A stretch of DNA of 55,861 nucleotides from Candidatus Uhrbacteria bacterium (GCA_016235605.1 JACRJW010000023.1:1-55861), one strand, 5' to 3'; shown: positions 602 through 51,473, counted from the stretch's first letter. Numbers and translations: made by a program. Notes: generated by a model from the letters alone, not told the origin.

Positions 602-2086
602 ATGATTCAAGAAGAAAAAGATCGCTTGGGACGACTCACGAAACTGCGAGCCGCTCACATCGACCCGTATCCAACGCACGCTGAGCGAACGCACACGATC
701 CAAGAAGTCCTAAGGTCGTTTGATGGACTCCTGGAAAAGAAAACGTCTGTAAAGATCATCGGACGTGTCCGTCTTTTGCGCCGTCATGGAGGGCTTACAT
801 TTGCCCAGCTCCAAGACCAATCAGGAACCATCCAGGTGGCGCTACGCAAAGACATCCTGGGAGAAGAAGCCTATGATTTTTTCCACGGGACGATCGACGT
901 GGGCGATTTTCTTGAGGTGGGTGGCCAGGTGTTCCTGACGAAGAAAGGCGAGAAAACCGTTGAGATCGAGCGTCAGCGTCTCATCAGTAAATCCCTGCTT
1001 CCACTGCCTGAGAAATGGCACGGCCTGAGTGATGTCGAAGCGCGTTTCCGGAAACGCTATCTGGACCTGATCATGAGCGAGGAAGTCCGCAACCGGCTCG
1101 AGACCAGGTCAAAAATCATTTCTTCCATCCGATCGCTTTTGGACGGCCGCGGATTCCTTGAGGTCGAGACACCAACGCTCCAACCGGTGTACGGCGGCGG
1201 GTTTGCACGGCCTTTTGTCACGCATCACCATGCGCTCGATACGAATTTTTTTCTGCGTATTTCAGATGAGATGTATTTGAAACGTCTGCTCGTGGGTGGC
1301 TTTGAAAAGGTCTACGAGATCACCAAAGTTTTTCGCAATGAAGGACTGGATCGTGACCACAATCCTGAGTTCACGATGTTCGAAGCACAGGTTGCGTATG
1401 AAAATTATGAGTACGGGATGGACCTGTTTGAGGAAATTTTCGAGACGGCCGCGGTACAAACACTCGACGCTCCAGAAATCCAACACGGGGACGTGGTGGT
1501 GAGCGTGAAGCGTCCATGGAAACGCCTGCGGCTGATCGATGCGGTTGAACAACTGGGTGGTCTTCAAAAAGAAATTTGGTCTGATCGTAAAGGAGCTCAA
1601 CAGACACTACAAAAAAAACTCGGGAAGTCGGCAGCAGAAGAGCTCGCTCGCATCAAATCAACCGGTGAGCTCATGGCGTTTGCGTTTGAAACGCTCGTTG
1701 AAGAAAAACTGTTCCAACCCACCATCATCTACGACTATCCCGTAGAGGTTTCACCGCTCGCAAAAAAATGTCCATCGGATTCTCGATTCGTCGAGCGGTT
1801 TGAGGCGTTTGCCGTGGGAATGGAGATCGGGAACAACTACTCTGAACTCAACGATCCTGTCGATCTTGAAAGGCGATTCATGGACGAAAAAAATCGTGAG
1901 CAGGCTGGATTCGATGAAGCACACCAAACAGACACCGATTATCTGGAAGCCATCAAACACGGAATGCCTCCGGCGTGCGGACTTGGCATTGGGATCGACC
2001 GCATGGTGATGCTGCTCACAGGCGCCAAGAACATCAAGGAAGTGATTTGGTTTCCGACGCTCCGTCCCAATCGCGAAGGGGACTAA
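602..2086 (+). CDS. lysS: Lysyl-tRNA synthetase, class II
   Basis: 494-aa ORF with an N-terminal OB anticodon-binding region and class II core motifs (FRNEG..., GLGIGIDRMVMLL). Confidence 0.92.
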   Translation: MIQEEKDRLGRLTKLRAAHIDPYPTHAERTHTIQEVLRSFDGLLEKKTSVKIIGRVRLLRRHGGLTFAQLQDQSGTIQVALRKDILGEEAYDFFHGTIDVGDFLEVGGQVFLTKKGEKTVEIERQRLISKSLLPLPEKWHGLSDVEARFRKRYLDLIMSEEVRNRLETRSKIISSIRSLLDGRGFLEVETPTLQPVYGGGFARPFVTHHHALDTNFFLRISDEMYLKRLLVGGFEKVYEITKVFRNEGLDRDHNPEFTMFEAQVAYENYEYGMDLFEEIFETAAVQTLDAPEIQHGDVVVSVKRPWKRLRLIDAVEQLGGLQKEIWSDRKGAQQTLQKKLGKSAAEELARIKSTGELMAFAFETLVEEKLFQPTIIYDYPVEVSPLAKKCPSDSRFVERFEAFAVGMEIGNNYSELNDPVDLERRFMDEKNREQAGFDEAHQTDTDYLEAIKHGMPPACGLGIGIDRMVMLLTGAKNIKEVIWFPTLRPNREGD

Positions 2087-2087
2087 T

Positions 2088-2462
2088 ATGGCCGTGAAGC
2101 GCGTACTGGTCTTTGGGACCTTTGATGGATTGCATGCGGGACACCTGTTCTTCTTGCGGTCGGCCAAGGCAAAGGGAACGCATCTCATCGTCGCTGTGGC
2201 GCGCGATGCGCATATCAAAACACTCAAGGACAAACGCCCGATACTGAGTGAACAGAAACGTCTTGAGGCGGTGAAGCTTCTGAAGATCGTGGATGAAGCA
2301 TATCTGTGCGACGCAGAGCTGGGAAGTTACAGGATTCTTGAATCCGCAAAGCCAGATCTCATCGTGTTTGGTCATGATCAGCAAAACCTTGAACGTGATC
2401 TGGTACGCTTCATGAGCGAGCATGAACAATATCTGCCGTTGTCGAGAATGAAGAAAGTATGA
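2088..2462 (+). CDS. Small cytidylyltransferase-family nucleotidyltransferase (TagD/RibL-like)
   Basis: 124 aa. The N-terminal GTFDGLHAGH matches the HxGH nucleotidyltransferase signature, and the size matches single-domain cytidylyltransferases. Confidence 0.7.
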   Translation: MAVKRVLVFGTFDGLHAGHLFFLRSAKAKGTHLIVAVARDAHIKTLKDKRPILSEQKRLEAVKLLKIVDEAYLCDAELGSYRILESAKPDLIVFGHDQQNLERDLVRFMSEHEQYLPLSRMKKV

Positions 2463-2561
2463 AACCAGTCAAGGACCTTCCCATTGTTGTTGGCGTTTGT
2501 GAACGTGATGGACAAATTTTAATGCTGCAAGCGAACAACGATATCCTTAAAGCGTTTTTAC

Positions 2562-3701
2562 ATGAAACGGCATCGCACGTGGGTTGAGGTCAGTGAGCGA
2601 GCGCTCACGAACAATATCGAGACCTTGCGCTCACTGCTTGAGGATGAGGCACGTTTTTGTGCCGTGGTGAAGGCGAATGCCTATGGACATGGCCTCACAG
2701 AGGTCGCAAGCATTGCCGCGCGTGCAGGGGTTGATGCCTTTGCGGTTGATTCCATTGATGACGCGCTCCTCTTGCGGGAGATCTATCCTGGTGCGCTCAT
2801 CCTCACGTTAGGATTCACGCTGTCAGATCGGTTTCGGGAAGCGCTGAGCGCGAATATCCATCTGACCATCTCGGACCAGGAGGAAATTGAACAGGCCCAA
2901 TCCGTCGGCCGCGAACTCGCAAGGACGTTTCCCCTCCACCTGAAGGTTGAAACAGGGACCATGCGCCAAGGAGCGTCCCTCCCGGATCTTGCCGACATGG
3001 CCCTTCAACTATCACGATGTGATCGTGTGTCACTGGAAGGCGTCTCAACCCATTTTGCCAACATTGAGGATTCTGAAAATCCAGAATTTGCCGCCCACCA
3101 ATTTTCCTTATACGAGCAGGCTCTCGCCATTTTTGCAGAGCACCAGATCAACCCACCATGGCGGCACACTGCCTGTTCGGCCGCGATTATTTTGTATCCT
3201 CAGACCCACCAGACCCTTGTGAGGGCTGGGATCTCGATGTACGGCATTTGGTCCTCAGAACTCGTTGAAAATACCGTGAGACGTCTTAATCTTGGATGTG
3301 ACCTTCAACCAGTACTCACCTGGAAATCCCGCATCGGGCAGATAAAAACAGTCCCAATGGGGACGCCCATCGGATACGGTCTCACAGAGGTCATGAAGCG
3401 CAGCGGCAGGCTTGCGGTGGTTCCTGTGGGATACTGGGATGGCTACGACCGCCAGCTGTCCTCAAAAGGCGAGGTGCTTGTGAAGGGGATCAGATGTAAA
3501 GTGATGGGACGCGTGTGCATGAACATGATGATGGTGGATGTGTCACAAGTTCCGCAATTGCAGAAGGAAGATGAAGTTATTTTACTGGGAACGGATGGTC
3601 GCCATCGGGTCACGGCTGAAAACCATGCGCAGCTCACCCAGACGATTCCCTATGAAGTGCTCACACGGATCCATCCCTCAATTCCACGCGTGATCGTATG
3701 A
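2562..3701 (+). CDS. alr: Alanine racemase
   Basis: 379 aa with the PLP-lysine motif VVKANAYGHG and a conserved C-terminal beta domain. Confidence 0.9.
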   Translation: MKRHRTWVEVSERALTNNIETLRSLLEDEARFCAVVKANAYGHGLTEVASIAARAGVDAFAVDSIDDALLLREIYPGALILTLGFTLSDRFREALSANIHLTISDQEEIEQAQSVGRELARTFPLHLKVETGTMRQGASLPDLADMALQLSRCDRVSLEGVSTHFANIEDSENPEFAAHQFSLYEQALAIFAEHQINPPWRHTACSAAIILYPQTHQTLVRAGISMYGIWSSELVENTVRRLNLGCDLQPVLTWKSRIGQIKTVPMGTPIGYGLTEVMKRSGRLAVVPVGYWDGYDRQLSSKGEVLVKGIRCKVMGRVCMNMMMVDVSQVPQLQKEDEVILLGTDGRHRVTAENHAQLTQTIPYEVLTRIHPSIPRVIV

Positions 3702-4537
3702 GCAGACGAGATTTTTTTCGACACGCAGAGCGCAGGCAGTATCGCACAAGGGATCACGAAAATCCCTACTTTCGCCGCGTAAAGAAAATCCCGTGGAAGG
3801 CGCTGAGTCTTTTCGTGGGCACAACGATCGTCTTTTTGGGCTTCTTAACGTTTCTTTTAGCCCATCCCGCGCTTGCCATTCACGAAGTACAAATTGATGG
3901 ACTCACGCATATCGACCGAGAGGAGTTTCAAACAGAGGTTTCTGCCTATCTTCATGAACGGGTCCTCCTATTTTTCCACCGGAAGAATCAATTTCTCTTT
4001 TCGGATGAGGACCTCCGCAAAAAACTTGAGAAGAAATTTACGTTTGCCTCCCTCACGGTCTCACAAGAGGGGAAGAAGCTTTCTATCCATGTGGAGGAGA
4101 GGAATTCAAATTTGATTTGGATGACGGATCAGGAATATATCGTTGATGTGCATGGAGTGGTTGTCCGGCGGCTGAATAGGGAAGACGCAGCGGAGGCGAA
4201 CCTTGCCTCATTCCTGCCTTCATTTTACGACATAAATAAGGTCCCTGTTACGGTCGGTTCCACGGTACTCACAGAACAAGAGATCGAACGAGTCTTTGCG
4301 TTCCATAAAATCTTAAGTGAACAAGGGATCGGCTTCACGCAGACGCGTTTAAATCGTCTTGTAGGTGGTTGGATGAGTGTGGTGACACAGGAAGGCTACG
4401 AGATCTATTTTGACGTCACAGGAGATATTGAAGCACAGGGAGAGGCCTTGAAAATGGTCCTGGCAGAGCAAATAGAGGATCCAGGGGACCTTGAATACAT
4501 TGATGTGCGTTTTGGGGATCACGTATATTTTAAATAG
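3698..4537 (+). CDS. ftsQ: FtsQ/DivIB-like cell division protein
   Basis: 279 aa with an N-terminal TM helix followed by a POTRA-like segment (VQIDGLTHIDREEF). ATGA start/stop overlap with alr. Confidence 0.65.
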   Translation: MSRRDFFRHAERRQYRTRDHENPYFRRVKKIPWKALSLFVGTTIVFLGFLTFLLAHPALAIHEVQIDGLTHIDREEFQTEVSAYLHERVLLFFHRKNQFLFSDEDLRKKLEKKFTFASLTVSQEGKKLSIHVEERNSNLIWMTDQEYIVDVHGVVVRRLNREDAAEANLASFLPSFYDINKVPVTVGSTVLTEQEIERVFAFHKILSEQGIGFTQTRLNRLVGGWMSVVTQEGYEIYFDVTGDIEAQGEALKMVLAEQIEDPGDLEYIDVRFGDHVYFK

Positions 4538-4682
4538 AGGGCTGCATAATCGGCGAATTACGAATGGCTACGAATATACGAATCGACCGAGTGTTGTCGT
4601 ATAAGGCATATTGTGCGACACGCTTGTTCTCCTTCTCTTCAACAGACCGCTCGACGAAATTATTCTGTTTGTACGACTAGTT

Positions 4683-4886
4683 CTAAATAAAGTCTGTGAG
4701 ATAAATAAGTAAGAGCATGATCACGCCAATCAGAAAAAACGTAAGACCGATAAGTGAGAGGGCAAGGATAAGCTCATCATTCTCCCCTGCCCCGCGGACC
4801 ATGTTGATGCTCACTCCTAAAAAGACGGTGAGCGGAACAAGCGCGAACGTCCAGCCGAGAAATGTGAGGACGAATTCAAGCGTCAT
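4683..4886 (-). CDS. Small two-TM membrane protein, unknown function
   Basis: The internal Met (MTLEFVLTFLGW...) begins 5 nt after the stop of the upstream M23 gene. Two hydrophobic helices. The longer ORF-track start would overlap the M23 gene. Confidence 0.45.
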   Translation of the reverse strand: MTLEFVLTFLGWTFALVPLTVFLGVSINMVRGAGENDELILALSLIGLTFFLIGVIMLLLIYLTDFI

Positions 4887-4890
4887 AAGC

Positions 4891-6096
4891 TCAATATGAA
4901 ATAAGATAACTGAGTGGGTCTGTCGGAATGCCGTCTTTGCGAACTTCAAAGTGCAAATGCGGTCCAGTGGAAAGGCCTGTGCTTCCAACAGCCCCGATCG
5001 TGTCTCCGCGCGCGACAAACTGATCTGCCACCACATCGATCCTGGAAAGGTGCGCATAGAGCGTTGAAAGACCGTTTGTGTGGATCACCATCACATAATT
5101 TCCATACAGACGTCCCGTTTTGGTAAATGCGACGTAGCCAGTGGCAGCGACGCCCACAGGCGTCCCAGTCGCCGCTGGAAGATCAAGTCCTGAATGTTCA
5201 AACAGATTTCGGAACGGATAGGTGGGGTCATGGAAGTAGGTGGAGATACCACGAAGCGTCGGACTAAACGGCCACGAAAGCACGGATGAATCCCCTCCTT
5301 GGTCCGCTTCGCTGAGCTTCCCTTCGATCTCCTGCTGTAACAAAAGAATTTCTTGGTTGATGAATGTTTGTTCCTGTTTGACGTCCTGAAGGAGAGATTG
5401 AAATTCTGATTCTGATTGCTGGGTTTGGGTGATGAGGATCTCCTTTGATCCTGTTTCCTCAGAGAGTCGATCAAGGTCCTTATCCAGGCTGTCCTCCAAT
5501 GAAACGAGGTCTCCCTTTTTCGTTTCCTCATTCGCCACTTTTTCCTCGAGGGCCGCTTTCATGGAACGGGCCTCATCAACCGTTTTTTTTAAGTCCTCAG
5601 AGACATTCGAGAGACGTTCAAGATTGTCGAAGAGTTCGGAGAAGGAATCATTCCCAAAAAAAAGTTCAAGCGGGACGGCCGTGTCCTCTGTTTGGATTTG
5701 ACGCAGGACTTGTGCCATGAGCTCACGTTGATAGTTGAGCTTCTCCTGGATCGTTTTGATTTCCCCGTCAAGGGACGCAAGCTCGATGTTCACAAGATCG
5801 ATGGAAGCCTCGGCGGCTTCAATATCAAGCTTCGTTTTTGCAATCCGGTTTTCAAGCAGGTCAATTTCTCCGTACAACGAGGCCTCTTGTGCCTGAAGGT
5901 TCTCAATTTTGTCTTTATAGGAATCGATCTGGCTGTTTAGGGCATCGATCGCCTCGCGCTTCTCATCAATCTTTGAAGAGAGGTTGTCGATGTCTGAATC
6001 ACCCTGTGCCTTTGCAGTTTCAACATAAAATAACGGCAGACTCATAAGAGCCAACAGGAGTATCACACGGCAGATTCCAGACAGGTTGTGTCTCAT
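4891..6096 (-). CDS. Secreted M23 metallopeptidase with long N-terminal coiled coil (EnvC-like)
   Basis: 401 aa with a signal peptide, a coiled coil of about 230 aa, and a C-terminal M23 domain (HSGLDL..., GPHLHFEV). Confidence 0.85.
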   Translation of the reverse strand: MRHNLSGICRVILLLALMSLPLFYVETAKAQGDSDIDNLSSKIDEKREAIDALNSQIDSYKDKIENLQAQEASLYGEIDLLENRIAKTKLDIEAAEASIDLVNIELASLDGEIKTIQEKLNYQRELMAQVLRQIQTEDTAVPLELFFGNDSFSELFDNLERLSNVSEDLKKTVDEARSMKAALEEKVANEETKKGDLVSLEDSLDKDLDRLSEETGSKEILITQTQQSESEFQSLLQDVKQEQTFINQEILLLQQEIEGKLSEADQGGDSSVLSWPFSPTLRGISTYFHDPTYPFRNLFEHSGLDLPAATGTPVGVAATGYVAFTKTGRLYGNYVMVIHTNGLSTLYAHLSRIDVVADQFVARGDTIGAVGSTGLSTGPHLHFEVRKDGIPTDPLSYLISY

Positions 6097-7556
6097 GATG
6101 AAAGTTTATCAATCGCGGTTGAGAGTCGGGAAAGAGTTTCGTCCTTGCCGAGGATCCAGGCGATTTGAAACGGCCCTGCAGATTTGTCAAAGCCTGAGAG
6201 CGCCACGCGCATGGGCCAAAGGACGTTCCCATTTTGTAGACCCTTGGATTCAATATACCGCTTTACGTGCGATTCAATCAACACAGGATCATGAAAAACT
6301 TCAGGATCAAGATCTGTGATGAGTTCCAGCACACCCCGGAGCTGGGTGATCGCGTCTTCTTTGGTGGATTTTTTCCAAACAAGCATCTGTAGATCGTACG
6401 AGAGTGGTTGTGTATAGGGTTTAATGCGTTCAGGAATCTCGGCGAGCGTTACCAGTCGCTCACGTTCTACGACGAGGATCTTTTTTAGAAGCTCGTCACT
6501 GACCACTCCCCTCTCACAAAAAGGCTTTGCGCTTTCCATCAGCTCATCAATGTTCATGGATCGAATATACATCCCGTTCATCCAATTTAATTTTACGATA
6601 TCGAACACCGCACCGCTTTTGTTGACCTTCGAAAGGTCAAAAGCCTGCGTGAGCTCGTCTAGAGAGTACATCTCTCTGGCAGCCGACGGATTAAATCCTA
6701 AGAGCGCTACAAAATTTAACAGCGCCTCAGGAAGATAACCTTTTGCGAGATACTCCTCGACCGCCACGTCCCCTTGACGCTTCGAGAGCTTGGACTTGTC
6801 TGGATTCAATATGAGCGGCAGATGCGCAAAAACAGGGAGTGGAAAACCAAACGCCTTGTAGAGATGCACATGCTTGGGCACTGACGAAATCCATTCCTCG
6901 CCGCGGATGACATGCGTCACACCCATAAGATGATCGTCAACGACCATAGCGAGGTGGTATGTCGGGAATCCATCCGCTTTCATGAGTACCTGATCGTCGA
7001 TCTGTGCATTTTGGATCGTCACAGAACCGCGGATGACGTCCTCAAATGTCGTCTCCCCGTCTGGAATTTTTAAACGGATAACATGTTGTTCTTGAGCGTC
7101 GAGTCGAGCCTTAACTTCCTTTGCGGTGAGTTTTAGACACTGTCGATCATACTTGGTTGAGGCTTTGATCAGCTCTTGGGACTTCCTCAGTTCCTCAAGA
7201 CGTTCTTTTGTACAGAAACAATAATACGCATCGCCTTGGAGAACGAGTCGCAGTGTATGCTCGAGGTAGATCGGTAGACGCGCAGACTGAACGTATGGTC
7301 CGTTTTCACCTTTTTCCTTGAGTACGCCATCAACAAGAATCGGCCCTTCGTCATAGGAAAGACCCATGCGATCGAGAGTCGCAATAAGCGACTCTACGGC
7401 GCCCTCAACGTAGCGTGTGCGATCCGTATCTTCGATGCGGACAAGAAACGTGCCGTGATTTTTTTTGGCGAACAAAAAATTGTACAGCGCGGTGCGCAGT
7501 GATCCGACATGGAGGAATCCCGTTGGGGATGGTGGAAAGCGAGTTTTCACGTTCAT
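6093..7556 (-). CDS. gltX: Glutamyl-tRNA synthetase
   Basis: 487 aa with PSPTGFLHVGSLRTAL (HIGH region) and KLSKR (KMSKS). Confidence 0.92.
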   Translation of the reverse strand: MNVKTRFPPSPTGFLHVGSLRTALYNFLFAKKNHGTFLVRIEDTDRTRYVEGAVESLIATLDRMGLSYDEGPILVDGVLKEKGENGPYVQSARLPIYLEHTLRLVLQGDAYYCFCTKERLEELRKSQELIKASTKYDRQCLKLTAKEVKARLDAQEQHVIRLKIPDGETTFEDVIRGSVTIQNAQIDDQVLMKADGFPTYHLAMVVDDHLMGVTHVIRGEEWISSVPKHVHLYKAFGFPLPVFAHLPLILNPDKSKLSKRQGDVAVEEYLAKGYLPEALLNFVALLGFNPSAAREMYSLDELTQAFDLSKVNKSGAVFDIVKLNWMNGMYIRSMNIDELMESAKPFCERGVVSDELLKKILVVERERLVTLAEIPERIKPYTQPLSYDLQMLVWKKSTKEDAITQLRGVLELITDLDPEVFHDPVLIESHVKRYIESKGLQNGNVLWPMRVALSGFDKSAGPFQIAWILGKDETLSRLSTAIDKLSS

Positions 7557-8386
7557 AATCCTTTTAATTGACGATGGACCTCTGGAAAAACACGAGAGAC
7601 TGCTTTCAGGAATCTACGAGACCTTAGTGTACTCAATGCCACCGCGAAAGGAAAGATGATACTGGCATTTACAATGCGCCGTACGCGCCTTGGCTCACGA
7701 ATGAGTCTCCAAACGAATTCAAGACCGATTTTCTGCATCCAGGACGGCGAACGTCTTTTCGATCCTGAGAGCATGTCCAGAGCTCCACCAACGCCGATCC
7801 AGATTCGCACGTTTGGCAACACCTCTTTCGCCTGGAACATAAACGCCTCCTGTTTCCCCTGCCCCAGTGCAACAGCAACGACGTCAGGCGCTGTATTTTT
7901 TATTTGATCAAGAATGTTCTGCGTAATCGCGACGTCAGTTCCATTGTAGGAAATCACTCCAGGATCGATCGCAACGACATCCAACTCGAGCAGATGCTGC
8001 CTGAGCCTCATCGCCGTTGCCTGCGCAACTCCAGAATCGCCACCCAAGAGCAGAAGTCGCTTGCTATTTTGCAAACACAGCCGCGCAAGATCCTGGAGCA
8101 CGTCAACGCCGGGATGGCGATGTCCCAAATAAGAATCCGTCAGGGCAGCGACGGCGTAGCGAAGGCTCACAGAGTCCGGAAGCGAAAGGTCGCTCTGGTT
8201 GAGTCGGTCATGAAACGTTTTGTTTTTTCTTGTGAGGAGAAGAAACTCTGCGTTCGTCGTTACGATCATCTTCCATCTTTCATCACAAATCCAAGACTGG
8301 AGCTGCTGCTGGAGCTCCGCGCCCGAAATATCGTCTATTCTTACATCAAAAACGTAATGCGGCTTCACACAGCTGCATGATAGCAA
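7553..8386 (-). CDS. WecB/TagA/CpsF-family glycosyltransferase
   Basis: 277 aa with family-typical blocks (IVTTNAEFLL, LPDSVSLRYA, VGGALD). Confidence 0.75.
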   Translation of the reverse strand: MLSCSCVKPHYVFDVRIDDISGAELQQQLQSWICDERWKMIVTTNAEFLLLTRKNKTFHDRLNQSDLSLPDSVSLRYAVAALTDSYLGHRHPGVDVLQDLARLCLQNSKRLLLLGGDSGVAQATAMRLRQHLLELDVVAIDPGVISYNGTDVAITQNILDQIKNTAPDVVAVALGQGKQEAFMFQAKEVLPNVRIWIGVGGALDMLSGSKRRSPSWMQKIGLEFVWRLIREPRRVRRIVNASIIFPFAVALSTLRSRRFLKAVSRVFPEVHRQLKGL

Positions 8387-42582: not shown

Positions 42583-43290
42583 TCATGGCAAACGCTCGAT
42601 GAGATCTTTCAAAAGACTCGGATCAGCATCAATCATGTCTGTTCCATGTCCAATCCCTGAGCGTTCAATCAAGGTTGTGAATGTCGGGTTGAGTTCGTGG
42701 AGCTTCAGGATCGACTTGTAGGATTCGCGGTCCTCATCGCTGGCAACCAAGATCACCTTCTGTGACGGTTGAAGTTTCGTGACCAACTCATCCGTCTTGA
42801 TCCCGCGATAATCAAGTCCAGGAGAGAGCGCGAGAGCGATGGGAAGTTCTGGGTGGCGCGTGAGTTCCTCGATCGCAAGGTTCGCTCCGATCGAGGCGCC
42901 GACGACCACAATGTTCTCTTTGGAAAATCCCTCCCCTTCCAGATAGGCAAGAGCCGCCTCTACATCCAAAATCTTTGCCTGCTGCTGTTCATCCGTAAAA
43001 TTTTTGTAGTTGAGCGTCCCGTTCATCGTACTCTCTCCGTGCCCGCGCTCATCAATGGCAAGCGAGGCGTAACCAATCCCATTGAGTGCCTTGGCAAATG
43101 ATGACCAACTGGTCCTGTCCGCCGGCATCATGTGCAACAGGATCGCCGCTTTCTGGTCATTGTTGCGAACAAAACTCCCGACGATTTCCACGCCGTCGGT
43201 CGTTGTCATGGTCACGCGATCTGGCATAGGAGTTTGAGCAGGCGTGCATCCCAAGCCAACAAGCATGAGGGCAAGGATGAGTCTGTGCAT
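42583..43290 (-). CDS. Alpha/beta hydrolase lipoprotein
   Basis: Start set at MHRLILALMLVGLGC (lipobox). Nucleophile elbow GASIG. The ORF-track start would overlap the upstream gene. Confidence 0.65.
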   Translation of the reverse strand: MHRLILALMLVGLGCTPAQTPMPDRVTMTTTDGVEIVGSFVRNNDQKAAILLHMMPADRTSWSSFAKALNGIGYASLAIDERGHGESTMNGTLNYKNFTDEQQQAKILDVEAALAYLEGEGFSKENIVVVGASIGANLAIEELTRHPELPIALALSPGLDYRGIKTDELVTKLQPSQKVILVASDEDRESYKSILKLHELNPTFTTLIERSGIGHGTDMIDADPSLLKDLIERLP

Positions 43291-43291
43291 A

Positions 43292-45391
43292 TTAATCAAA
43301 CCGAATCGTTTGGCCTGATCGGACCGTGCCGGCGCTCGGTGGCGGAGACACAGGCGGAGGGACCGGCACGGGAGCCACTGGGCGTGGTGTTGCGGCAGGT
43401 TCACGGACAACCGCTGGCGGTGCGCTCACTCTACGAGCAGCCTCATCGCCTCCAGTACCCTTCTTTCCACGCCGTCGCCGTTTCTTTTTGTTCGGATCGC
43501 CCTGTGGCTCTTGTGGATGAACTGAGGCAACGAGCGCTGGTTGTGGCGCGGGAGCCACATTCACCTTGCGCGCTTCACGGATTTTCTTGAGGCAGTCCTC
43601 GCAAAAAACAGGACGCGAGCGATCGAGCTTGATGTTTGTCGAAAAATCTTTTTTGCAGTCTGAACAGGTGTACGTTTCGCCTTGTGCGACAGGTTTCTCG
43701 TGGGCGACCTCTTGCTTCACAGGCATAGGAGCTTCTTGTTTGTGAACGACAGGAGCCTCAGACATAGGCGCAGGTTTGGGTGGGACGAGCGCCGCGAGTG
43801 TCACCGCGGGCTCCATAGAAACCTTTTCCACAGGCTTCCCTTCCGTCGGTTTTGGCACGGGAAGAGGCTCAGGCTTTGGCACAAACGGCTTGGATTTTTT
43901 ACCGCCCTTACGTTCCTCACGCACGATCTCAATGCAATCATCACAATAAATCGGTCGTGAACGATCGAGCTCCACGGGCAAAATAACTTCCTTGGCACAA
44001 CGCGAGCATTTGTATTCAAATCGCGGCTTCTTGCTCTCCTTGCTCGCTTTCTTTTTCGCCTCTGCGGCTTCCAAGAGCGTATCCATGTCCGCGCCCTCCA
44101 TGCCGCTCCATTGCAAAATCTTTTCTTCGATCACCCCACGAGGCTGGGCATAACGCTCTCGCGAAACCTTAATGACCTTCTCTTCAGAACCCGTCACCTG
44201 CGCAATCGGCGGCAGGGTGAGAGCAGAAAACGGTTGACTCGTGACTCCGTCGATCAAGAGCTTAATGTACACGTTGTACTTTGGCAGGTTGATGATGTCC
44301 TCGGGCGTGAAGCGCGGCATGAACTCGGTTTCCATGAACGTGGCATCCGGCGAGCCTACACGGAACGTGATAATCGTTCCCACGTTGCCAAACACGGCAT
44401 CGCGCACTTCTTCACTCAACTGCGCCACATATTGATGCGCCATGGTGAGACACAATCGATACTTACGCGCCTCGGACAAGATACTCGCGAACGACTCAAC
44501 GGCAAAATTTTGGAACTCATCCACGTACAGGTAAAAATCCTTGCGCTCTGTCTCGGGAATTTCCACGCGCTCCATGGCCGCCAGCTGCATCTTGGTGATC
44601 AAGAGTCCCCCGAGCAAGCGCGAATTATCTTCCCCGATCCTGCCCTTGGAGAGATTGATGATGAAGATTTTTTCGCTGTCCATGATCTCGCGCACGTTGA
44701 TGGTGGACTTTACTTGCGCCACAATGTTGCGGATGACCACGGCCGACAAAAACTGACCGATCTTATTTTGAATCGGCGCCACGGCTTCCTGCGCGTATTT
44801 TTCGTTATACGAAGCAAACTCCACCAACCAAAACTGTTTCACCACCGGGTCTTTCACGTTGCCGACGATGCGTTTGCGAAAGTCGGCATCGGAAAGCATG
44901 CGGTTGATCCCCAACAGTGTCTGTCCGGGATTGTCCAGAAGCGCCAAAAGGGTGTTGTTCAAAATGTACTCCATGCGGCTGGACCACATGTTTTCCCAAA
45001 TTTTTTGGAACACGCCCATCATGCCTGACACCACCAGATGTTTGTGGCTCTCACTCACGGCTTCCAAAATATTGAACCCGACGGGAAACTCCATGTCCGC
45101 CGGATTGAAATACACGACGTCGTTCATGCGCCAGCTGGGAATGAAGTTGATGAGACGCTCGGCCGTGTCCCCGTGGGGATCAACGTACGCACAGCCGTGG
45201 CCGGCATAGATGTCGGACAAAATCAAATTCTCCAGAAGCACGGTTTTCCCCATGCCTGTTTTCCCAATCACATAAACATGGCGGCGTCGGTCGTCGGTCT
45301 TGATGCCGAACTTCGTCATCTTGTTGCGAAAATTTGTTTTCGCAAAATAGTTGACCTCATGGTCGTGATCGTGGTTGTACGACATACTCAC
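43292..45391 (-). CDS. VirD4/TraD-like coupling-type ATPase with two C-terminal CxxC-x17-CxxC zinc ribbons and a Pro-rich tail
   Basis: Walker A GKTGMGKT, Walker B LYVDEFQNF, MAHQYVAQL. The C-terminus carries CSRCAKEVILPVELDRSRPIYCDDC and CSDCKKDFSTNIKLDRSRPVFCEDC. An alternative start is ATG 45385. Confidence 0.75.
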   Translation of the reverse strand: MSMSYNHDHDHEVNYFAKTNFRNKMTKFGIKTDDRRRHVYVIGKTGMGKTVLLENLILSDIYAGHGCAYVDPHGDTAERLINFIPSWRMNDVVYFNPADMEFPVGFNILEAVSESHKHLVVSGMMGVFQKIWENMWSSRMEYILNNTLLALLDNPGQTLLGINRMLSDADFRKRIVGNVKDPVVKQFWLVEFASYNEKYAQEAVAPIQNKIGQFLSAVVIRNIVAQVKSTINVREIMDSEKIFIINLSKGRIGEDNSRLLGGLLITKMQLAAMERVEIPETERKDFYLYVDEFQNFAVESFASILSEARKYRLCLTMAHQYVAQLSEEVRDAVFGNVGTIITFRVGSPDATFMETEFMPRFTPEDIINLPKYNVYIKLLIDGVTSQPFSALTLPPIAQVTGSEEKVIKVSRERYAQPRGVIEEKILQWSGMEGADMDTLLEAAEAKKKASKESKKPRFEYKCSRCAKEVILPVELDRSRPIYCDDCIEIVREERKGGKKSKPFVPKPEPLPVPKPTEGKPVEKVSMEPAVTLAALVPPKPAPMSEAPVVHKQEAPMPVKQEVAHEKPVAQGETYTCSDCKKDFSTNIKLDRSRPVFCEDCLKKIREARKVNVAPAPQPALVASVHPQEPQGDPNKKKRRRRGKKGTGGDEAARRVSAPPAVVREPAATPRPVAPVPVPPPVSPPPSAGTVRSGQTIRFD

Positions 45392-46980
45392 GTCGGTAAA
45401 TTCGGTGGAACAAACCCCTTGTCTTGTGTCTCTTCCCTCGCGTGGGTCGGCGCGGCAGGATGGGGAAGTGTCTCGTGAAGCGGCTCGTCGGATGCAGGCT
45501 CAGCAATGCCAAATCCTGTTCCGGCCAAGGGACGTTCTTCTTCCTCTGGAGCAAAAATAGCTTCTGCTCCAGGCAAGGACTGCTCGGCAAAGGTGACCGG
45601 AAGCCCTACCGGCGGTTCACCACGCTTGGATTCGCTCTTCTTCACAAGCGGCGCCTTGATATAGACCGCCGGGAAATGCCACAAGGTAGCCAGCTCTTCC
45701 GAGTTCAACACAACGGGCGTGGCGCCGATGGACCAGCTACGGTTCTTAAACGCTTTCATGAGCGTATGTTGTTTTTTGGTATACACCCAGCGCATCCAAA
45801 AATAATCATCCTTGGGCACCTGCGGGATAAACAACGTAAACTTATTCAGGTTTAAATTCGTGTACTGGTTCCAAATGCCCTTCACAATGCCCGTACGCTC
45901 CACTTTGACAAACACGTTCTTTTTTGCCATGTAGATGACCCGGATCTTTGCGCCAAGCCCAACTTTGCTGGCTTTGAGCACGATCGCCTCGGCTTCCTGC
46001 TTTTGCACAGGCGAAATTTTGAACGCCTTCCAAATATCCTTGACCTCTGTCTCTGCCCCGGGAGTCAACAGGCCGCTCAAATCCACGTCGAGCGCTTCTT
46101 TGAGCAGTTCGTTTGGAAGCGTGAGAAGCGACTCACCCGCTGATTCAATCAATCCCTTTTTCTTTTTTTCCTCAACGCCGTAGATCGTATTCACATACTT
46201 GATGCCTTTTTTCATCCAATCGTTGTTTGAGGGCTGGACGACCATCTGTATCCAAAAATGTTCACCCGGACGCATCGTGCCAAGCTGTTCAAGAGTGTAC
46301 CCCAGCGGGTCTTTAATTTCCTGCGAGATCCGATCTTCAAAATCCACATAGGTGCGGATCGGGTACATGGAATCGCGATCGAGTGTCATCTCACCGCCCC
46401 ACATTTCATATTCCGCATCAGGATAATCCATCGGAAAAGGTTTTGTGTAATCTTCAATCTCAGAAATTTGCGCGTCTGGATAATGGGCGTAGATCCCAGC
46501 CTCAATCACATCGCGGAACCTCGTTTGGGTACGGATGACAAATTGGATATATCCTTCCGTGGAAACAATCTCAAACGAAAAAACAGGGTAGAGCTTGCCA
46601 TCCATCCAAATTTCCTTCCACGTAAGGGTGGATTTTGTGCCATACAAGTTGGCGAAAAAATTCTCCATGGCCTTTGGCGTCTGTTCCGTCATCGAAGGGA
46701 CATCCACGGCCAAGTAGGTGTACTTCAACTTGGCCGAATACAGCCTACGCCGGTAGTCCCGCCACACTTCGGTAAACCCCCAGGCGAGCGTCACGGCAAT
46801 CGGCAGCCATCCAAACCAAATCAAGATATCAAAAAGGATCACATCGAGCGGCTGGTCGAAATAGGAACTGGTGTGTGCGACAGCCGTCGTCGCTTGTGCG
46901 ACAATCGGGATCGCAAAGAGTGGAAACATAACCGCAACCATTGTACCAAAAAAATGACCATGCACCCAGTGCATGGTCAT
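45388..46980 (-). CDS. Membrane protein translationally coupled to the VirD4-like ATPase, unknown function
   Basis: 530 aa with N-terminal TM helices and then a large soluble region. 4-nt overlap with the ATPase ORF. Confidence 0.6.
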   Translation of the reverse strand: MTMHWVHGHFFGTMVAVMFPLFAIPIVAQATTAVAHTSSYFDQPLDVILFDILIWFGWLPIAVTLAWGFTEVWRDYRRRLYSAKLKYTYLAVDVPSMTEQTPKAMENFFANLYGTKSTLTWKEIWMDGKLYPVFSFEIVSTEGYIQFVIRTQTRFRDVIEAGIYAHYPDAQISEIEDYTKPFPMDYPDAEYEMWGGEMTLDRDSMYPIRTYVDFEDRISQEIKDPLGYTLEQLGTMRPGEHFWIQMVVQPSNNDWMKKGIKYVNTIYGVEEKKKKGLIESAGESLLTLPNELLKEALDVDLSGLLTPGAETEVKDIWKAFKISPVQKQEAEAIVLKASKVGLGAKIRVIYMAKKNVFVKVERTGIVKGIWNQYTNLNLNKFTLFIPQVPKDDYFWMRWVYTKKQHTLMKAFKNRSWSIGATPVVLNSEELATLWHFPAVYIKAPLVKKSESKRGEPPVGLPVTFAEQSLPGAEAIFAPEEEERPLAGTGFGIAEPASDEPLHETLPHPAAPTHAREETQDKGFVPPNLPT

Positions 46981-47007: not shown

Positions 47008-47907
47008 CTAGGCTCTCTTGATCCACTGCTCCCACGCAACCAGGGCGGGACTTGCAAAGAAAATCGAAGAATAGGTTCCCACCGCAATACCGATGATGAG
47101 CGCCAGGGCAAACGGTCGTGTGGACTCGCCACCGAAGAAAAAGATCGCGGCCAAGGCCAGCAAGGTGGTCAAGGACGTGTTCACAGAACGCACGAAAGTC
47201 TGGCGGATGCTTTTTTCCACAACGACAGGAAAGGCTTCGCCGGTGTGATGCGACAAGTTCTCACGGGTGCGATCAAACACGACAACGGTGTCAGAAATGG
47301 AATACCCAAGAATCGTCAGAATCGCCGCCACAAACCCTGATCCGACTTCCCAATGATAAAAATGGCCGAGAACCGCAAACGCTCCAAGCGGGATGATGAC
47401 ATCATGGGCGGCGCATAACACGGTGATGAGGCCATACTTCCAGGAAGCGATCGGGTCTGAGACTTTCCGGAATGCCCACGAGATGTACAACCCGATCAAC
47501 AACAGTGTCAGTCCCACGCCGATGAGCGATGAGCGCCGCAATTCATTGCCGACGGTCGGACCAATCGAATCAAAACGCAATTCCGTGAACGCCCCAAACG
47601 TCTCTGCCAATTTCAGGAGCGTACTCTGATGGGTCGCCTCGTCCTGCATTTGTGTACGGACAATCAGCTTTTGGTTTTTGTCGGCAGATTGCACAGACAC
47701 GCTCTCAAGGGACGCAAGAGCCTCTTTCACGTCCTGGGTGGAGGGCGCTCCATCGGCAAACTCAAGCTCCATGAGGGAGCCTCCGGTAAAATCCACACCA
47801 AATTTCAGTCCGAAGAGAAAGAGGGCGACAATGCTTGCGACAATCAAGATCGCTGAAAGGACGAACCAGTGTTTCCGCCAACCGACGAAGCTAAATGAAG
47901 TTGTCAT
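47008..47907 (-). CDS. secF: Protein translocase subunit SecF
   Basis: Start set at MTTSFSFVGWRKHWF, 5 nt after the secD stop. Six TM helices, SecF-like. Confidence 0.88.
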   Translation of the reverse strand: MTTSFSFVGWRKHWFVLSAILIVASIVALFLFGLKFGVDFTGGSLMELEFADGAPSTQDVKEALASLESVSVQSADKNQKLIVRTQMQDEATHQSTLLKLAETFGAFTELRFDSIGPTVGNELRRSSLIGVGLTLLLIGLYISWAFRKVSDPIASWKYGLITVLCAAHDVIIPLGAFAVLGHFYHWEVGSGFVAAILTILGYSISDTVVVFDRTRENLSHHTGEAFPVVVEKSIRQTFVRSVNTSLTTLLALAAIFFFGGESTRPFALALIIGIAVGTYSSIFFASPALVAWEQWIKRA

Positions 47908-47911
47908 AAGA

Positions 47912-49978
47912 TTATTTACGTTTGAGACCGTAAAGTGATGGAGCCTGCAGGGCATGGATGCCACGGATATTTTTCATGTAGGTCCGAGTGACCGTGATCG
48001 CCGTGAAGAGTGACAACAGGACGCCCACGGCAAGGGTGAGCGCAAACCCTCTCACAAAACTCGAAGTGAAGCTGTACAGGACACTGGCGGAGATGAGCGT
48101 CGTCAAGTGCCCATCACGGATCGGCGCCCACGCGCGCTTGAAACCTTCATCCATTGACGAGATCAAATCACGGCCGCTTCGAAATTCATCCTTGATGCGT
48201 TCAAAGATAAGCACATTGGCGTCCACCGCGATTCCCAGCGAGAGGATGAGTCCTGCAATTCCTGAAAGCGTAATCGTCACACCGAACAATCGATACGCGG
48301 CCATGTTGAGGACGACGTATAAGATCAGCGCCAGCACAGCCAGCACGCCAGGAAGACGATAGAGCGCAACCATGAACAGCGCCACGAACAAAAATCCCAG
48401 ATAGGCGGCCGTCAAACTTTTGTGCAAAGACGCAAGACCAAGCGTCGGGCCAATCGTTTCCTGTGAGAGCAGGTCCACAGGAACCGGAAGCGCTCCTGCG
48501 TTCAATCTCTGGGCAAGGACTTTTGCTTCTTCCAAGGTGAAGTCGCCTGTGATGACCGCCTTGCCGCCGTAGATGGCCTGTTGGACCGTGGGGGTGGAAA
48601 TTGGCGTGCCATCCAGAAAAATGGCAATAGGCTGACCGACATACTGCTCGGTGAGTTTGCCAAACAGGTCTCCGCCTTCGCTGTTAAACGTGAGCGCGAC
48701 AAACGGGGAACCCGTGTTCTGGTCAAATTGCACCGCCGCGCGTTCAAGGTCTTTGCCAGAAAGCTCAGAGTTCACCCACGGCGAGGCTTCCGGAATGATG
48801 TCGAACGTGTCGGAAAGTTCCATGAGGATCCGCGAAATGGTATACGTCGGGATCGTCCGTTCCTCTTGTTTATAAATCAAGTGATAGCCGAAGTCCGTTT
48901 CAACGATATCAGAAATACCACCGACCGGAAGCGCTGTGGCCGCAAGCCCAAACGCAGGGACATAATTTTCAGCGATCGCAAAACCAAGGTCACCCTTGTT
49001 GGTAGCGGCTGATGGATCTGTGGAGTTCTCAAGGGCAAGCTCTGCAAAATTTTCTGGCGTGGCCTCCTTTTTAAGTTTCCCGATCTGGATAGATGCGTCC
49101 AGTTGTGAAAGGCCGCTCTGGCACCCTGTTTTCCCTTCAAAACAAATGAGGATATGCGAAAGGTGCATCTCCTTTTTGTCTTCCTGGCTCACATATTTGA
49201 ACACGCTCACGCCGTCTTCATTCTCCAGAAGATTCTTGTACAACTGTCCAGGGACCATCCCGCGCTCGATCAAAGCGGCATACTCGGCAAAATAGGAACC
49301 GTCGGTAATCCCAGCGACCACTCCCTTGGTGGTGTCTTTATTTTTCTCAATGCTGTTCTCGGCCACCAACGCATCAAAATCTTCTCCGGCAAGAGCCCGG
49401 TTCAGCACCGAGCGAGCGGCCGTGCGCTCAGCTTCGTTTGCCGTATCAAGTTGCGCTTGCTCCTCAGCCGTCAAATCACGGTCGACTTCCTGTCCTGGTG
49501 TTTTGAACTCAAGCACCGGTGTTTCACCGATCAAGGTGATCGCCTCGGTGACATCGAGCACGCCGGCCAGTTCAATGATGACCCGATACGTCCCGCCCGT
49601 GGTCGTTGTCTGCACGACAGGCTCAGAAACACCAAACGCGTTTACTCGACGTTCAATCACATCGCGCACGCCTTCCAGAGCCTCGTTGCGGTCTCCCTCC
49701 GCTATCTGGCTCATGTCTGCCTCGTAGATGAGGTGCGTGCCCCCTTGCAGGTCAAGACCGAGCTTGAATGGAACCTCAGAAAAGGTCGGCGGCGCCCAGC
49801 CGACCTGAGCCTGGACAAAAGAGACTCCTTTATTCCACACAGACGGAAAATCATAGACTCCCACCACAACGGTAAGCACGAGCAAGAGGATGGCTGTCAT
49901 CCGCATCCCCCAAGGATTTTGTGAACTTTTCTGCATCGCGCGTTTCTTGAGCTTCCACGTTTGCATAGGATCAATCAA
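47912..49978 (-). CDS. secD: Protein translocase subunit SecD with an inserted tandem parvulin-like PPIase module
   Basis: 688 aa. SecD blocks (GLDLQGGTHL, PIAIFLDGTPISTP, the C-terminal 6-TM bundle) flank about 215 aa containing HLSHILICFEG...NKGDLGF...FGYHLIYK. Confidence 0.85.
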   Translation of the reverse strand: MIDPMQTWKLKKRAMQKSSQNPWGMRMTAILLLVLTVVVGVYDFPSVWNKGVSFVQAQVGWAPPTFSEVPFKLGLDLQGGTHLIYEADMSQIAEGDRNEALEGVRDVIERRVNAFGVSEPVVQTTTTGGTYRVIIELAGVLDVTEAITLIGETPVLEFKTPGQEVDRDLTAEEQAQLDTANEAERTAARSVLNRALAGEDFDALVAENSIEKNKDTTKGVVAGITDGSYFAEYAALIERGMVPGQLYKNLLENEDGVSVFKYVSQEDKKEMHLSHILICFEGKTGCQSGLSQLDASIQIGKLKKEATPENFAELALENSTDPSAATNKGDLGFAIAENYVPAFGLAATALPVGGISDIVETDFGYHLIYKQEERTIPTYTISRILMELSDTFDIIPEASPWVNSELSGKDLERAAVQFDQNTGSPFVALTFNSEGGDLFGKLTEQYVGQPIAIFLDGTPISTPTVQQAIYGGKAVITGDFTLEEAKVLAQRLNAGALPVPVDLLSQETIGPTLGLASLHKSLTAAYLGFLFVALFMVALYRLPGVLAVLALILYVVLNMAAYRLFGVTITLSGIAGLILSLGIAVDANVLIFERIKDEFRSGRDLISSMDEGFKRAWAPIRDGHLTTLISASVLYSFTSSFVRGFALTLAVGVLLSLFTAITVTRTYMKNIRGIHALQAPSLYGLKRK

Positions 49979-50040
49979 TCAATAAAATCGTCGCCAGTGT
50001 AAACAACTAGACCAAGGCTGGCAAGTGGACAAACGGCTCC

Positions 50041-51252
50041 TCACTTTTTGCGCGGGACGGTCGCCTCGAGAGTTCCTTGAGCTTTCCCAAACACTTTTTT
50101 GTCAGGCCAATGGTGTCTGGAGCGTAGAAAAAAGAGATGTTTCTCAGACTGTTTGTCCAAATGAACGTCCACACCAGACAAGAACGTGAGACGATCCTCC
50201 AGACCCAAAATCCGCGCCATACCATTCAGCGCCCGAGCATAATTGATTGCGTTCAAAAAATCACTCCCGGCCAGCGTATCCACACGCGTGGACCCAAGAA
50301 GTCGCTGTGCGACGTCTCGCACCCCCGTCCATTCGATATCAGCAAACGGATCGACGATCAAGTACGTCCACTTCCCTTCGTTATTTTTGTACACGCGTAC
50401 ATTCCCCCCTCCAGCAAGATCAAGCATCTTGTCACTCGTCTTTGTAAACGTGATCATGTGTTGGACCATGTCGCGAAGCCTATTTGCTAGATCCTGATCT
50501 TTGTATGAATCTTCAAGAAGTCTGACGGTTCCAACATGCAAAAAGCCATAAAAAAGTCTTGCGTCAAACGGTTCCCTCTCACCGAACGTCATCCGGTTCA
50601 GGCGTTGATACTCATTGAGTGGAATATCAAAACGCTCCACGTATCGAAACCCAAACGAATGCATGTCGTGATTTTCTCCACCTTCTTTTTTGAGCATCCT
50701 CGCACGCTCAGGAATCATCTCTTGATACCGCACGATCGTTGGGACACGGACGGTTGAGGAGGACGCAAGGTCTTTGAGATCTTCCCGCCCAAGAATTTCA
50801 CAAGCGACTTCAGGTGTCACTGGCACCTCTGAAATCACCGTGCGTGTCGGAAGAATCTGGTCAGAGGGAAAAGAACGGAGCAAAGCTTTCATAAAATCTG
50901 CCTCACGATCAAGCACGTCCTCCATCCCGATGGAATCGTCTTCTTGCTCATGCATGGCTTTTGCGCCTTCCTGAATCCTCTCGTCATTGGAAGTGGTGCG
51001 TGGACGCGTTTCCCAACGCGTATAGGCATCACGAAGAAGACCCCGTTTCAAATAATGCATATCAGCCTTTAACACCAGACGTCGATGCGTCCCTTCCCGA
51101 CCTTCTTTTGGACCCACCCGAAACACCACGCTCTCCCCGCCGTGACCGGCGTACTGCAAATCCGCCGGAAGCAGCGGATCGTCCTTGCGCTCCTTTGCAT
51201 ACTTGCCCGCGAGTTCAGGGATCTGTCGGGAGAGAGGAGGATGCTCCGTCAT
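50041..51252 (-). CDS. Orphan protein with protein-kinase-like motifs
   Basis: Start set at MTEHPPLS, 6 nt after the hicA stop. Gly-rich GHGGESVVF, LVLKAD, LDLAGGGNV, LIVDPF. The motif spacing is not canonical. Confidence 0.5.
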   Translation of the reverse strand: MTEHPPLSRQIPELAGKYAKERKDDPLLPADLQYAGHGGESVVFRVGPKEGREGTHRRLVLKADMHYLKRGLLRDAYTRWETRPRTTSNDERIQEGAKAMHEQEDDSIGMEDVLDREADFMKALLRSFPSDQILPTRTVISEVPVTPEVACEILGREDLKDLASSSTVRVPTIVRYQEMIPERARMLKKEGGENHDMHSFGFRYVERFDIPLNEYQRLNRMTFGEREPFDARLFYGFLHVGTVRLLEDSYKDQDLANRLRDMVQHMITFTKTSDKMLDLAGGGNVRVYKNNEGKWTYLIVDPFADIEWTGVRDVAQRLLGSTRVDTLAGSDFLNAINYARALNGMARILGLEDRLTFLSGVDVHLDKQSEKHLFFLRSRHHWPDKKVFGKAQGTLEATVPRKK

Positions 51253-51257
51253 ACGGC

Positions 51258-51473
51258 TTACTCGACAAAATTTTCTTGGCTTAATCCAGACTGACGAAGA
51301 ATTGAACGAAAGGTTCCGTGTGGAACTTCTCTCCCGTGAACGGGTACAATGACGTTGAATGCTGAACGGCCGTTCCTGCGATATTTCATGTGACTTCCGT
51401 TCTGCGAGACAAAATAAAAGCCCTTGTTTCCAAGGACTCTCAAAATACGTTTCAGCCATACCGGCTTAGGCAT
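51258..51473 (-). CDS. hicA: HicA-family mRNA interferase toxin
   Basis: 71 aa, HicA-like (LGNKGFYFVSQNGSHMKY...PVHGREVPHGTFRSILRQ). Confidence 0.8.
   Translation of the reverse strand: MPKPVWLKRILRVLGNKGFYFVSQNGSHMKYRRNGRSAFNVIVPVHGREVPHGTFRSILRQSGLSQENFVE

Follow-up and report, generated by a model that had tools for sequence, protein, structure and literature searches.

The Patescibacteria account for a large share of bacterial diversity, and they are unable to synthesize nucleotides, lipids, or most amino acids themselves. The acquisition of macromolecules from host cells by these bacteria is a question touched by two adjacent genes of a Candidatus Uhrbacteria bacterium (an ultra-small 'CPR' bacterium; GCA_016235605.1; assembly 97.5% complete, with 8% contamination), which are located at positions 43292 to 46980 of a DNA stretch of 55,861 nucleotides (JACRJW010000023.1:1-55861), referred to here as the window. 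One of them encodes a 699-amino acid (aa) ATPase resembling type IV coupling proteins (T4CPs), and the other a 530-aa membrane protein. An initial annotation of the window described them as a two-protein membrane ATPase of the coupling-protein type among housekeeping genes, a description that is supported by the present analysis. The locus raises the question what such a motor does in these surroundings, and whether it works with a type IV secretion system (T4SS). Favored here, at a probability of roughly 55%, is the answer that the pair represents a domesticated type IV coupling motor working with the chromosomal T4SS of the phylum.

Architecture of the divided ATPase

Sequence comparison shows the pair to be the two halves of one membrane-anchored coupling-type ATPase that was split by gene fission. 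The same genome encodes, on contig C59, a fused paralogue of 849 aa in which a transmembrane (TM) segment, a DUF8128 domain, and an ATPase domain follow one another (PF26449 plus PF10412). This paralogue is covered over its residues 95-405 by residues 104-461 of the membrane protein (blastp, E 6e-24), and over its residues 409-826 by residues 8-421 of the ATPase, at 41% identity; because both halves are collinear with the fused protein, the break falls in the inter-domain linker. Both halves are also matched by the viral family phrog_5156 (824 positions), of which positions 60-200 correspond to the 530-aa protein and positions 402-806 to the ATPase (E 9e-58). Beyond the break point, the split anchor carries approximately 70 extra disordered residues that end in FVPPNLP[TV]. 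This motif echoes PAPANVP, the inter-domain linker of the fused form, with which a related stretch of the anchor, PPVGLP, is aligned. The two co-translated genes thereby rebuild the order TM anchor, DUF8128, and T4CP motor. The features of the pair are given below in window coordinates.

45388-46980, minus strand: 530-aa DUF8128 protein with N-terminal anchor of two TM segments, cytoplasmic alpha/beta domain, and disordered C-terminal tail (open reading frame, PF26449, AlphaFold2 model)
46876-46959, minus strand: predicted TM segment 1, residues ~8-35 (Kyte-Doolittle windows at least 1.6; low AlphaFold2 confidence here)
46771-46851, minus strand: predicted TM segment 2, residues ~44-70, beginning a long helix (hydropathy; AlphaFold2 helix 45-84)
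45658-46728, minus strand: DUF8128 globular domain, residues ~85-441, the part collinear with the fused paralogue (blastp, alignment columns, phrog_5156)
45391-45657, minus strand: disordered linker-like tail, residues 442-530, with the FVPPNLP[TV] end (predicted local distance difference test score, pLDDT, below 50)
45388-45391, minus strand: GTGA overlap of membrane-protein stop and ATPase start (sequence read)
43292-45391, minus strand: 699-aa TrwB/VirD4-type ATPase, soluble, with C-terminal zinc-ribbon tail (Pfam, PDB sequence matches, phrog_5156)
45242-45265, minus strand: Walker A motif GKTGMGKT, residues 43-50 (aligned with the TrwB P-loop)
44504-44521, minus strand: Walker B region DEFQNF, residues 291-296 (aligned with TrwB FIDELASL)
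44417-44437, minus strand: HQYVAQL, residues 319-325, the Q-containing motif conserved in coupling proteins (AHQY invariant in the paralogue family)
43295-44101, minus strand: Pro/Lys/Ala-rich tail, residues 431-699, with both ribbons and a KKKRRRRGKKG patch (composition)
43934-44008, minus strand: zinc ribbon 1, CSRC-x17-CDDC, residues 462-486 (PF23477 match 43931-44023, 23.9 bits, cut-off 27)
43592-43666, minus strand: zinc ribbon 2, CSDC-x17-CEDC, residues 576-600 (PF23477 match 43580-43675, 19.3 bits)

Both open reading frames (ORFs), which are co-directional on the minus strand, and their 4-nt overlap were recovered as initially annotated by ORF calling and inspection of the sequence. At the junction (...CCG ACG TGA), the stop codon of the membrane-protein gene and the GTG start codon of the ATPase gene share GTGA. 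An alternative ATG start codon two codons inward leaves a 2-nt gap, and the database copy of the ATPase has 697 aa; translational coupling would be compatible with either start.

The large domain of the membrane protein, which had been considered unassignable, corresponds to DUF8128 (PF26449.1), a model with which the identical database protein and 119 of the 120 homologues listed had been annotated in advance, and the N-terminal TM helices reported before were predicted by hydropathy to be two in number. Neither NCBIfam nor a copy of Pfam that does not contain the PF26449 model yielded a match. The AlphaFold2 model of this protein, built with 30 homologues, has a mean pLDDT of 71 and a confident core at residues ~40-440, with a disordered N-terminus and disordered residues 442-530. 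Among the 30 homologues, the globular domain contains many invariant columns, and in the terminal FVPPNLP[TV] motif P525, L528, and P529 are invariant, and P526 and N527 nearly so. The best fold match of the DUF8128 model in the PDB is TrwK/VirB4 of the R388 T4SS (7o42_A; E 2.7e-4, probability 1.0, TM-score 0.31), with a resemblance to the N-terminal half of VirB4, by which that protein docks to the membrane complex. Similarly, the best full-length PDB matches of the model of the fused paralogue (pLDDT 73.6) are TrwK/VirB4 (E 2e-12, ~800-940 columns), at a TM-score of only ~0.3 because the inter-domain geometry differs. When its ATPase half is taken alone, the latter model superposes on TrwB (18-19% identity, TM-score about 0.5), as well as on Cag-beta and the C-domain of VirB4 (4AG5).

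The coupling-protein type of the ATPase, as proposed initially, is corroborated by profile searches, in which TrwB_AAD_bind (PF10412) scored 44.2 bits (cut-off 20.5), TraG-D_C (PF12696) 26.1 (cut-off 22), and PF02534 18.4, slightly below its cut-off of 20.1. The scores against the TraD and VirD4 equivalogs of NCBIfam are far under their cut-offs. The ATPase is a distant member of the coupling-protein superfamily outside these named subfamilies. Its best PDB matches by sequence are TrwB and DotL. The GKTGMGKT, DEFQNF, and HQYVAQL motifs, as well as two exact CxxC-x17-CxxC modules with an LDRSRP[IV][YF]C core, are all present as first described, and the ATP site is intact. Kyte-Doolittle hydropathy analysis detected no hydrophobic or TM segment in the ATPase, and thus no N-terminal anchor on the same chain; anchor and motor share one polypeptide only in the fused paralogue.

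Distribution, descent, and relatives of the family

In an even sampling of the Patescibacteria, 296 of 301 genomes encode DUF8128, mostly in two copies, as do 252 of the 253 high-quality genomes of this sample, and a profile search of 1.84 billion cluster representatives yielded 2,683 DUF8128 clusters. The narrow lineage-specific system that had been proposed is not borne out by these numbers. In a synteny sample of 20 loci from the same order, the same class, and other classes, the ATPase gene directly follows the DUF8128 gene in 18 loci, secD-secF are located just upstream in 14, and mnmA is often found downstream. The two remaining genomes encode an orthologous ATPase (70-71% identical) elsewhere, unlinked from secDF-DUF8128. 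Across the sampled loci, identity amounts to 58-74% for the ATPase core, 38-54% for SecD, SecF, and MnmA, and 27-41% for DUF8128. By these comparisons, the pair is under strong purifying selection and is part of the core genome.

In a tree of ATPase cores, the fused paralogues form a clade with 100/99 support, apart from a slowly evolving group that holds the window ATPase. Within the latter group the gene is split in most of the sampled classes, and three other lineages retain single chains of 735-975 aa, which places the duplication early and the fission after it. The pair is thus one of two ancient paralogues that are retained by nearly all Patescibacteria. A complete genome of the same class (G192) contains two more ATPase paralogues that lack TM segments (C1 1898-3136, minus strand, and 135995-137227, plus strand; frames of 494 and 514 aa) and are 45% identical to the window core, besides an unlinked orthologue and a fused paralogue; certain lineages have thus enlarged the family. 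At the C59 locus of the Uhrbacteria genome (L002: 205-2754, 2757-3377, 3322-end), the fused gene is followed by a gene for a 206-aa protein with an acidic N-terminus and no Pfam match, and then by dnaX; the same order, with a 194-aa protein, is encountered in a distant genome (G042, L029).

These distribution data bear on the possibility that the ATPase is an ordinary conjugative coupling protein of an integrated plasmid or integrative and conjugative element (ICE), or a component of anti-phage defense (MADS mad8-like, HerA-like ATPase), an origin that would agree with its PF10412 and TraG-D_C domains and with a padloc match to mad8 (E 1e-18). Nevertheless, across the phylum the pair is nearly universal, mostly kept in synteny, and slow to evolve; no relaxase was matched in the genome (PF03432, PF13814; the PF13814 search is weak, as the control genomes also gave no match), G+C content is even across the region, and the neighbors are housekeeping genes (secDF, a gene for an HD-domain protein, and mnmA). 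On these grounds, a mobile element or ICE was rejected. The MADS system was likewise rejected, as the padloc matches to mad8 and HerA cover only the common P-loop, the anchor protein has no padloc match, and Pfam assigns the five neighbors that were scanned to other families. Mobile-element or defense origin is considered close to excluded.

Full-length relatives outside the phylum were detected by tblastn with the fused paralogue, at 21-28% identity in alignments that span ~80% of this query. They are encoded on plasmids of Embleya, Streptomyces, Bacillus, Staphylococcus, Clostridium, haloarchaea, and Sulfolobus, and by phages, including Bacillus phage G (gp156) and SPO1 (gp27.4). The neighborhoods of two plasmid records were inspected. 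On the Embleya plasmid (NZ_CP108778), the order is PrgI-family protein, ATP-binding protein, 812-aa T4CP, replication-relaxation protein, and NlpC/P60 protein, and the 27-kb B. subtilis plasmid (NZ_CP154917) encodes an 885-aa 'DUF87' protein, a replication-relaxation protein, conjugal transfer proteins, an 847-aa ATP-binding protein, and a lytic transglycosylase/C40 peptidase. In both records the gene thus lies inside a conjugation module, which identifies the family as the coupling protein of monoderm-type conjugation systems. The T4SS of Patescibacteria has been reported to derive from the monoderm-type conjugation class (PMC12102498), an origin with which these conjugative relatives fit. 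The one-chain relatives in the Bacillus and Embleya conjugation operons are ordinary coupling proteins, and on the contig of the pair no T4SS ATPase was matched.

The window ATPase shares 32% identity with its Embleya counterpart and 27% with that from Bacillus; the match of the window DUF8128 to the Bacillus protein is weak (E 3e-4, 2e-7), and that to the Embleya protein is not significant. The one-chain conjugative and phage proteins display the same domain order as the window pair, with a DUF8128-like region followed by a T4CP motor. In contrast to the pair, which is split and located elsewhere, the plasmid proteins are single chains in T4SS operons, beside genes for replication-relaxation proteins, VirB4-like proteins, and cell-wall hydrolases, and they are very distant from the window ATPase (branches of more than 5 changes per site in the tree). 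With the TrwB/VirD4 family (TrwB of R388, PDB 1E9R/1GKI; DotL; Cag-beta), the window motor shares the Walker A, Walker B, and HQ motifs. The TrwB-like two-helix membrane anchor belongs to the window unit as well, but on a separate polypeptide. Moreover, the window unit differs from TrwB by ~360 DUF8128 residues between anchor and motor, by its C-terminal zinc-ribbon tail, and by its place in a chromosomal core gene set without a relaxase or adjacent T4SS genes. VirB4 (TrwK of R388; PDB 7O42, 7O43, 8RTD) has a like plan, in which a membrane-proximal N-terminal alpha/beta domain precedes a C-terminal FtsK/HerA-type ATPase, but the window motor is nearer in sequence to coupling proteins, and the genome has a separate true VirB4.

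In Patescibacteria, 5,713 homologues of VirD4-type T4CPs have been counted in 2,918 of 3,035 genomes by Quinonero-Coronel et al. 2025, who raised the possible exaptation of the orphan homologues (PMC12102498). These orphans belong to the same family, with about two copies per genome and, like the window pair, away from virB4. That paper does not describe a DUF8128 partner, gene fission, two paralogue lineages, or a ribbon tail. The family is thus known as orphan T4CP homologues, and the literature searched contains no description of its division into two genes, of the DUF8128 partner, of the paralogue structure, or of the ribbon tail.

The T4SS as candidate partner

As a domesticated coupling motor, the pair would most likely sit at the cytoplasmic face of the chromosomal T4SS and act there as the ATPase that feeds in substrates. 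By analogy with TrwB, its halves would reassociate at the membrane and form a ring, and the C-terminal PPNLP peptide of the anchor, as the counterpart of the one-chain linker, may help to hold them together. The VirB4-like DUF8128 domain could then dock this ring to the inner-membrane parts of the T4SS, as the N-domain of VirB4 does in R388, and the variable basic zinc-ribbon tail might bind cargo or an adaptor. The substrate to be moved across the single membrane would be a macromolecule, with nucleic acid favored over protein. Such a motor would descend from the coupling proteins of monoderm conjugation, no longer residing in a mobile element and without a relaxase.

The T4SS cluster of Patescibacteria has been described as lacking a recognizable coupling protein; in S. 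epibionticum, the only species in which this was tested, the system is essential (PMC10633639). VirB4 was detected in 296 of 300 Patescibacteria genomes that are at least 95% complete, and the figure of 80% in the literature probably reflects incomplete metagenome-assembled genomes or a stricter profile. As a consequence, the presence or absence of VirB4 failed as a discriminator between T4SS-linked and independent function. In the Uhrbacteria genome, searches with PF03135 and AAA_10 gave no match on the contig of the window, in agreement with the earlier remark that no T4SS genes are nearby, and a VirB4-like gene (P-loop_TraG, AAA_10) is present on contig C25. The statement that this is not a classical T4SS thus holds for the locus, and it does not extend to independence from a T4SS, since VirB4 is encoded on C25 and is near-universal in the phylum. 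On C25 (L004: 1-1935, 1932-2513, 2483-3082), the contig start truncates the VirB4-like gene, after which come genes for a 193-aa protein with a hydrophobic N-terminus and for a ComF-like double-zinc-ribbon protein; the contig lacks the remainder of the T4SS cluster. The genome also encodes two ComEC proteins, besides FtsK on contig C76.

Several observations weigh against cooperation with the T4SS. The pair has no physical or genetic link to T4SS genes, as its contig differs from that of virB4, and only 148 of the 5,713 homologues in the phylum are near virB4 (PMC12102498). Because VirB4 and the pair are both near-universal, their co-occurrence is uninformative on a shared function. Transposon sequencing of S. 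epibionticum (Wang et al. 2023) showed that SEML1_0142 (1019 aa) is essential, in contrast to SEML1_0293 (921 aa, PF10412), which is non-essential. Of these T4CP-like genes, one is thus dispensable despite the essential T4SS, and either could be the orthologue of the pair. The neighborhoods of the candidate relative G042 do not match those of S. epibionticum ML1. Finally, hhalign comparison of the DUF8128 profile with the VirB4 of the same genome revealed no similarity, and the 530-aa protein has no match to PF03135 (CagE_TrbE_VirB family) and no sequence or profile likeness to VirB4. Since the profile comparison gave nothing, the likeness of the modeled DUF8128 domain to VirB4 (TM-score about 0.3) is confined to architecture and fold, and does not amount to demonstrated homology.

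A less likely alternative is that the pair is a stand-alone translocase that does without the T4SS, in which the two-TM anchor and the ATPase ring would pump DNA or RNA through the single membrane in a manner resembling FtsK/SpoIIIE or TraB of Streptomyces. Such a pump could serve the uptake of host nucleic acid or the handling of the chromosome. It would agree with the distance from virB4 here and in about 97% of the cases in the phylum, with the linkage of the fused paralogue to dnaX in two distant genomes, with the suitability of a basic zinc-ribbon tail for nucleic-acid binding as suggested by its composition, and with the membership of coupling proteins in the FtsK/HerA superfamily of DNA pumps (PMC12857230). 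DUF8128 is, moreover, kept in four genomes of at least 95% completeness that have no VirB4 match (G117, G058, G135, G276), but these may hold divergent VirB4 genes. An independent pump is further disfavored by the separate FtsK and the two ComEC genes that the genome already has, by the T4SS operons in which the relatives outside the phylum all reside (as far as the two plasmid records inspected), and by the two TM helices per subunit, which constitute the usual anchor of a coupling protein, and no coupling protein is known as a channel by itself.

Flanking genes, zinc-ribbon tail, and implications

Pfam searches with the five neighbors of the pair identified SecD, SecF, an alpha/beta hydrolase, an HD-domain protein, and MnmA. 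The flanking features are as follows.

47008-49978, minus strand: secD, with a peptidyl-prolyl isomerase (PPIase) insert, and secF, the co-directional genes immediately upstream (Pfam SecD/SecF families; 27-nt gap to the DUF8128 gene)
42583-43290, minus strand: alpha/beta-hydrolase lipoprotein gene, starting 1 nt past the ATPase stop (ATG at 43290; Hydrolase_4, Abhydrolase_1)
49996-50024, minus strand: sigma-70-like promoter match just 5' of secD (sequence scan; weak)

Read in the direction of transcription, the genes run secD, secF, the 530-aa gene, the ATPase gene, and the hydrolase gene, with distances of 27 nt between secF and the 530-aa gene, -4 nt between the two genes of the pair, and 1 nt between the ATPase and hydrolase genes. 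The pair is therefore located transcriptionally downstream of secDF, and not upstream as had been annotated, and the DUF8128 and ATPase genes probably share an operon that is led by secDF. The promoter-like site near secD is only a lead, because the promoter and terminator scan of the region gave 4 sites against 6.0 expected by chance and hence no excess. A homologue of the hydrolase follows the ATPase in 2 of the 20 loci of other genomes. The secD gene (47912-49978, minus strand) has its parvulin-type PPIase insert in the periplasmic P1 region (Pfam Rotamase, residues 275-370, 78.8 bits), and a 472-aa ORF upstream of it (50041-51459, minus strand) gave no match to Pfam at a threshold of E <= 0.001. 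Scanning the window for Rfam families and tRNAs detected nothing that bears on the locus.

This gene order could reflect a role as accessory to protein export, in which the pair would take part in the movement or quality control of secreted proteins, for example by feeding substrates to the membrane. The co-directional secD-secF-DUF8128-ATPase arrangement with its tiny gaps, and the spread across the phylum of the 14 loci with secDF upstream of DUF8128, would be explained by such a role, and some coupling proteins do recruit protein effectors (PMC12857230). Nonetheless, streamlined genomes often conserve gene order without functional coupling, the ATPase gene is unlinked from secDF-DUF8128 in two genomes, and neither protein of the pair has a Sec-related domain in Pfam or NCBIfam. 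Moreover, S. epibionticum, despite its two T4CP-like genes, has neither SecD nor SecF listed in its annotation tables. A function in protein export is therefore regarded as very improbable.

The zinc-ribbon tail of the ATPase is variable among orthologues, both in length and in ribbon number: the ribbon is single in 8 of the 18 orthologues sampled, duplicated in the Uhrbacteria ATPase, and lacking in the fused clade, and it is an accessory element. In the window ATPase, the 269 residues of the tail include 40 P, 31 K, 27 A, and 27 V. Both modules have an exact cysteine spacing of 2-17-2, and their profile scores are below the cut-offs (TIGR04272 27.3 versus 36; PF23477, zf_Tbcl_2, 24.9 versus 27). 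In the genome of 1.2 Mb only six ORFs carry CxxC-x17-CxxC, and the presence of two copies in one tail is therefore not a matter of chance. The suspicion that the ribbon region was a separate gene joined by misassembly could be dismissed, since it lies in the same ORF and recurs in the orthologues of other genomes. Identity with RpoP/RPB12 was also rejected, as the resemblance to this zinc ribbon of RNA polymerase is insignificant (E 0.9); it does explain the misleading 'RpoP' annotations of homologues in databases. Searches of the tail against the PDB gave no significant match.

The ribbon core ..RP.[VI][YF]C..C is also present in the only strong PF23477 member of the genome (54.9 bits), a basic protein of 143 aa on contig C71 (9094-9525, minus strand), with a DEAD-box helicase gene a few kb away. 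Furthermore, contig C23 encodes three paralogous Cys-rich proteins of 558-605 aa (1168-2844, minus strand; 3511-5292 and 6053-7870, plus strand) without an obvious signal peptide, which end in a CxxC-x17-CxxC ribbon with the core ..DRPE[IV]VYCE[EQ]C, the module that is doubled in the ATPase tail. They may act as partners of the ATPase or be its clients, or the likeness may reflect no more than a common zinc module.

Import of host material by the T4SS has been proposed, and a cultivated member of the phylum has been shown to take up RNA from its host (bioRxiv 10.64898/2026.06.21.733656). A more specific form of the domesticated-motor reading, which is considered unlikely, holds that the split motor, as an engine at the cytoplasmic membrane, pulls host-derived nucleic acid (RNA or DNA) in through the T4SS pilus conduit, with the basic zinc-ribbon tail gripping the polynucleotide, so that both an inward direction of transport and a nucleic-acid cargo would be presumed. 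If true, the split motor would be the missing uptake machine for the host-RNA feeding reported in that cultivated member (bioRxiv 10.64898/2026.06.21.733656).

With the pair and its fused paralogue, the phylum has coupling-type motors that are as universal as VirB4, and the ATPase core is better conserved than SecD, SecF, and MnmA in the same loci. If these motors feed the T4SS, the pair and its paralogue would identify the energy and substrate-selection module of this system, and the zinc-ribbon tail would provide a handle for finding its cargo. Finally, the split form shows that a coupling protein can receive its membrane anchor and its VirB4-like docking domain in trans, which bears on the general manner in which coupling proteins dock to the inner-membrane complexes of T4SSs.

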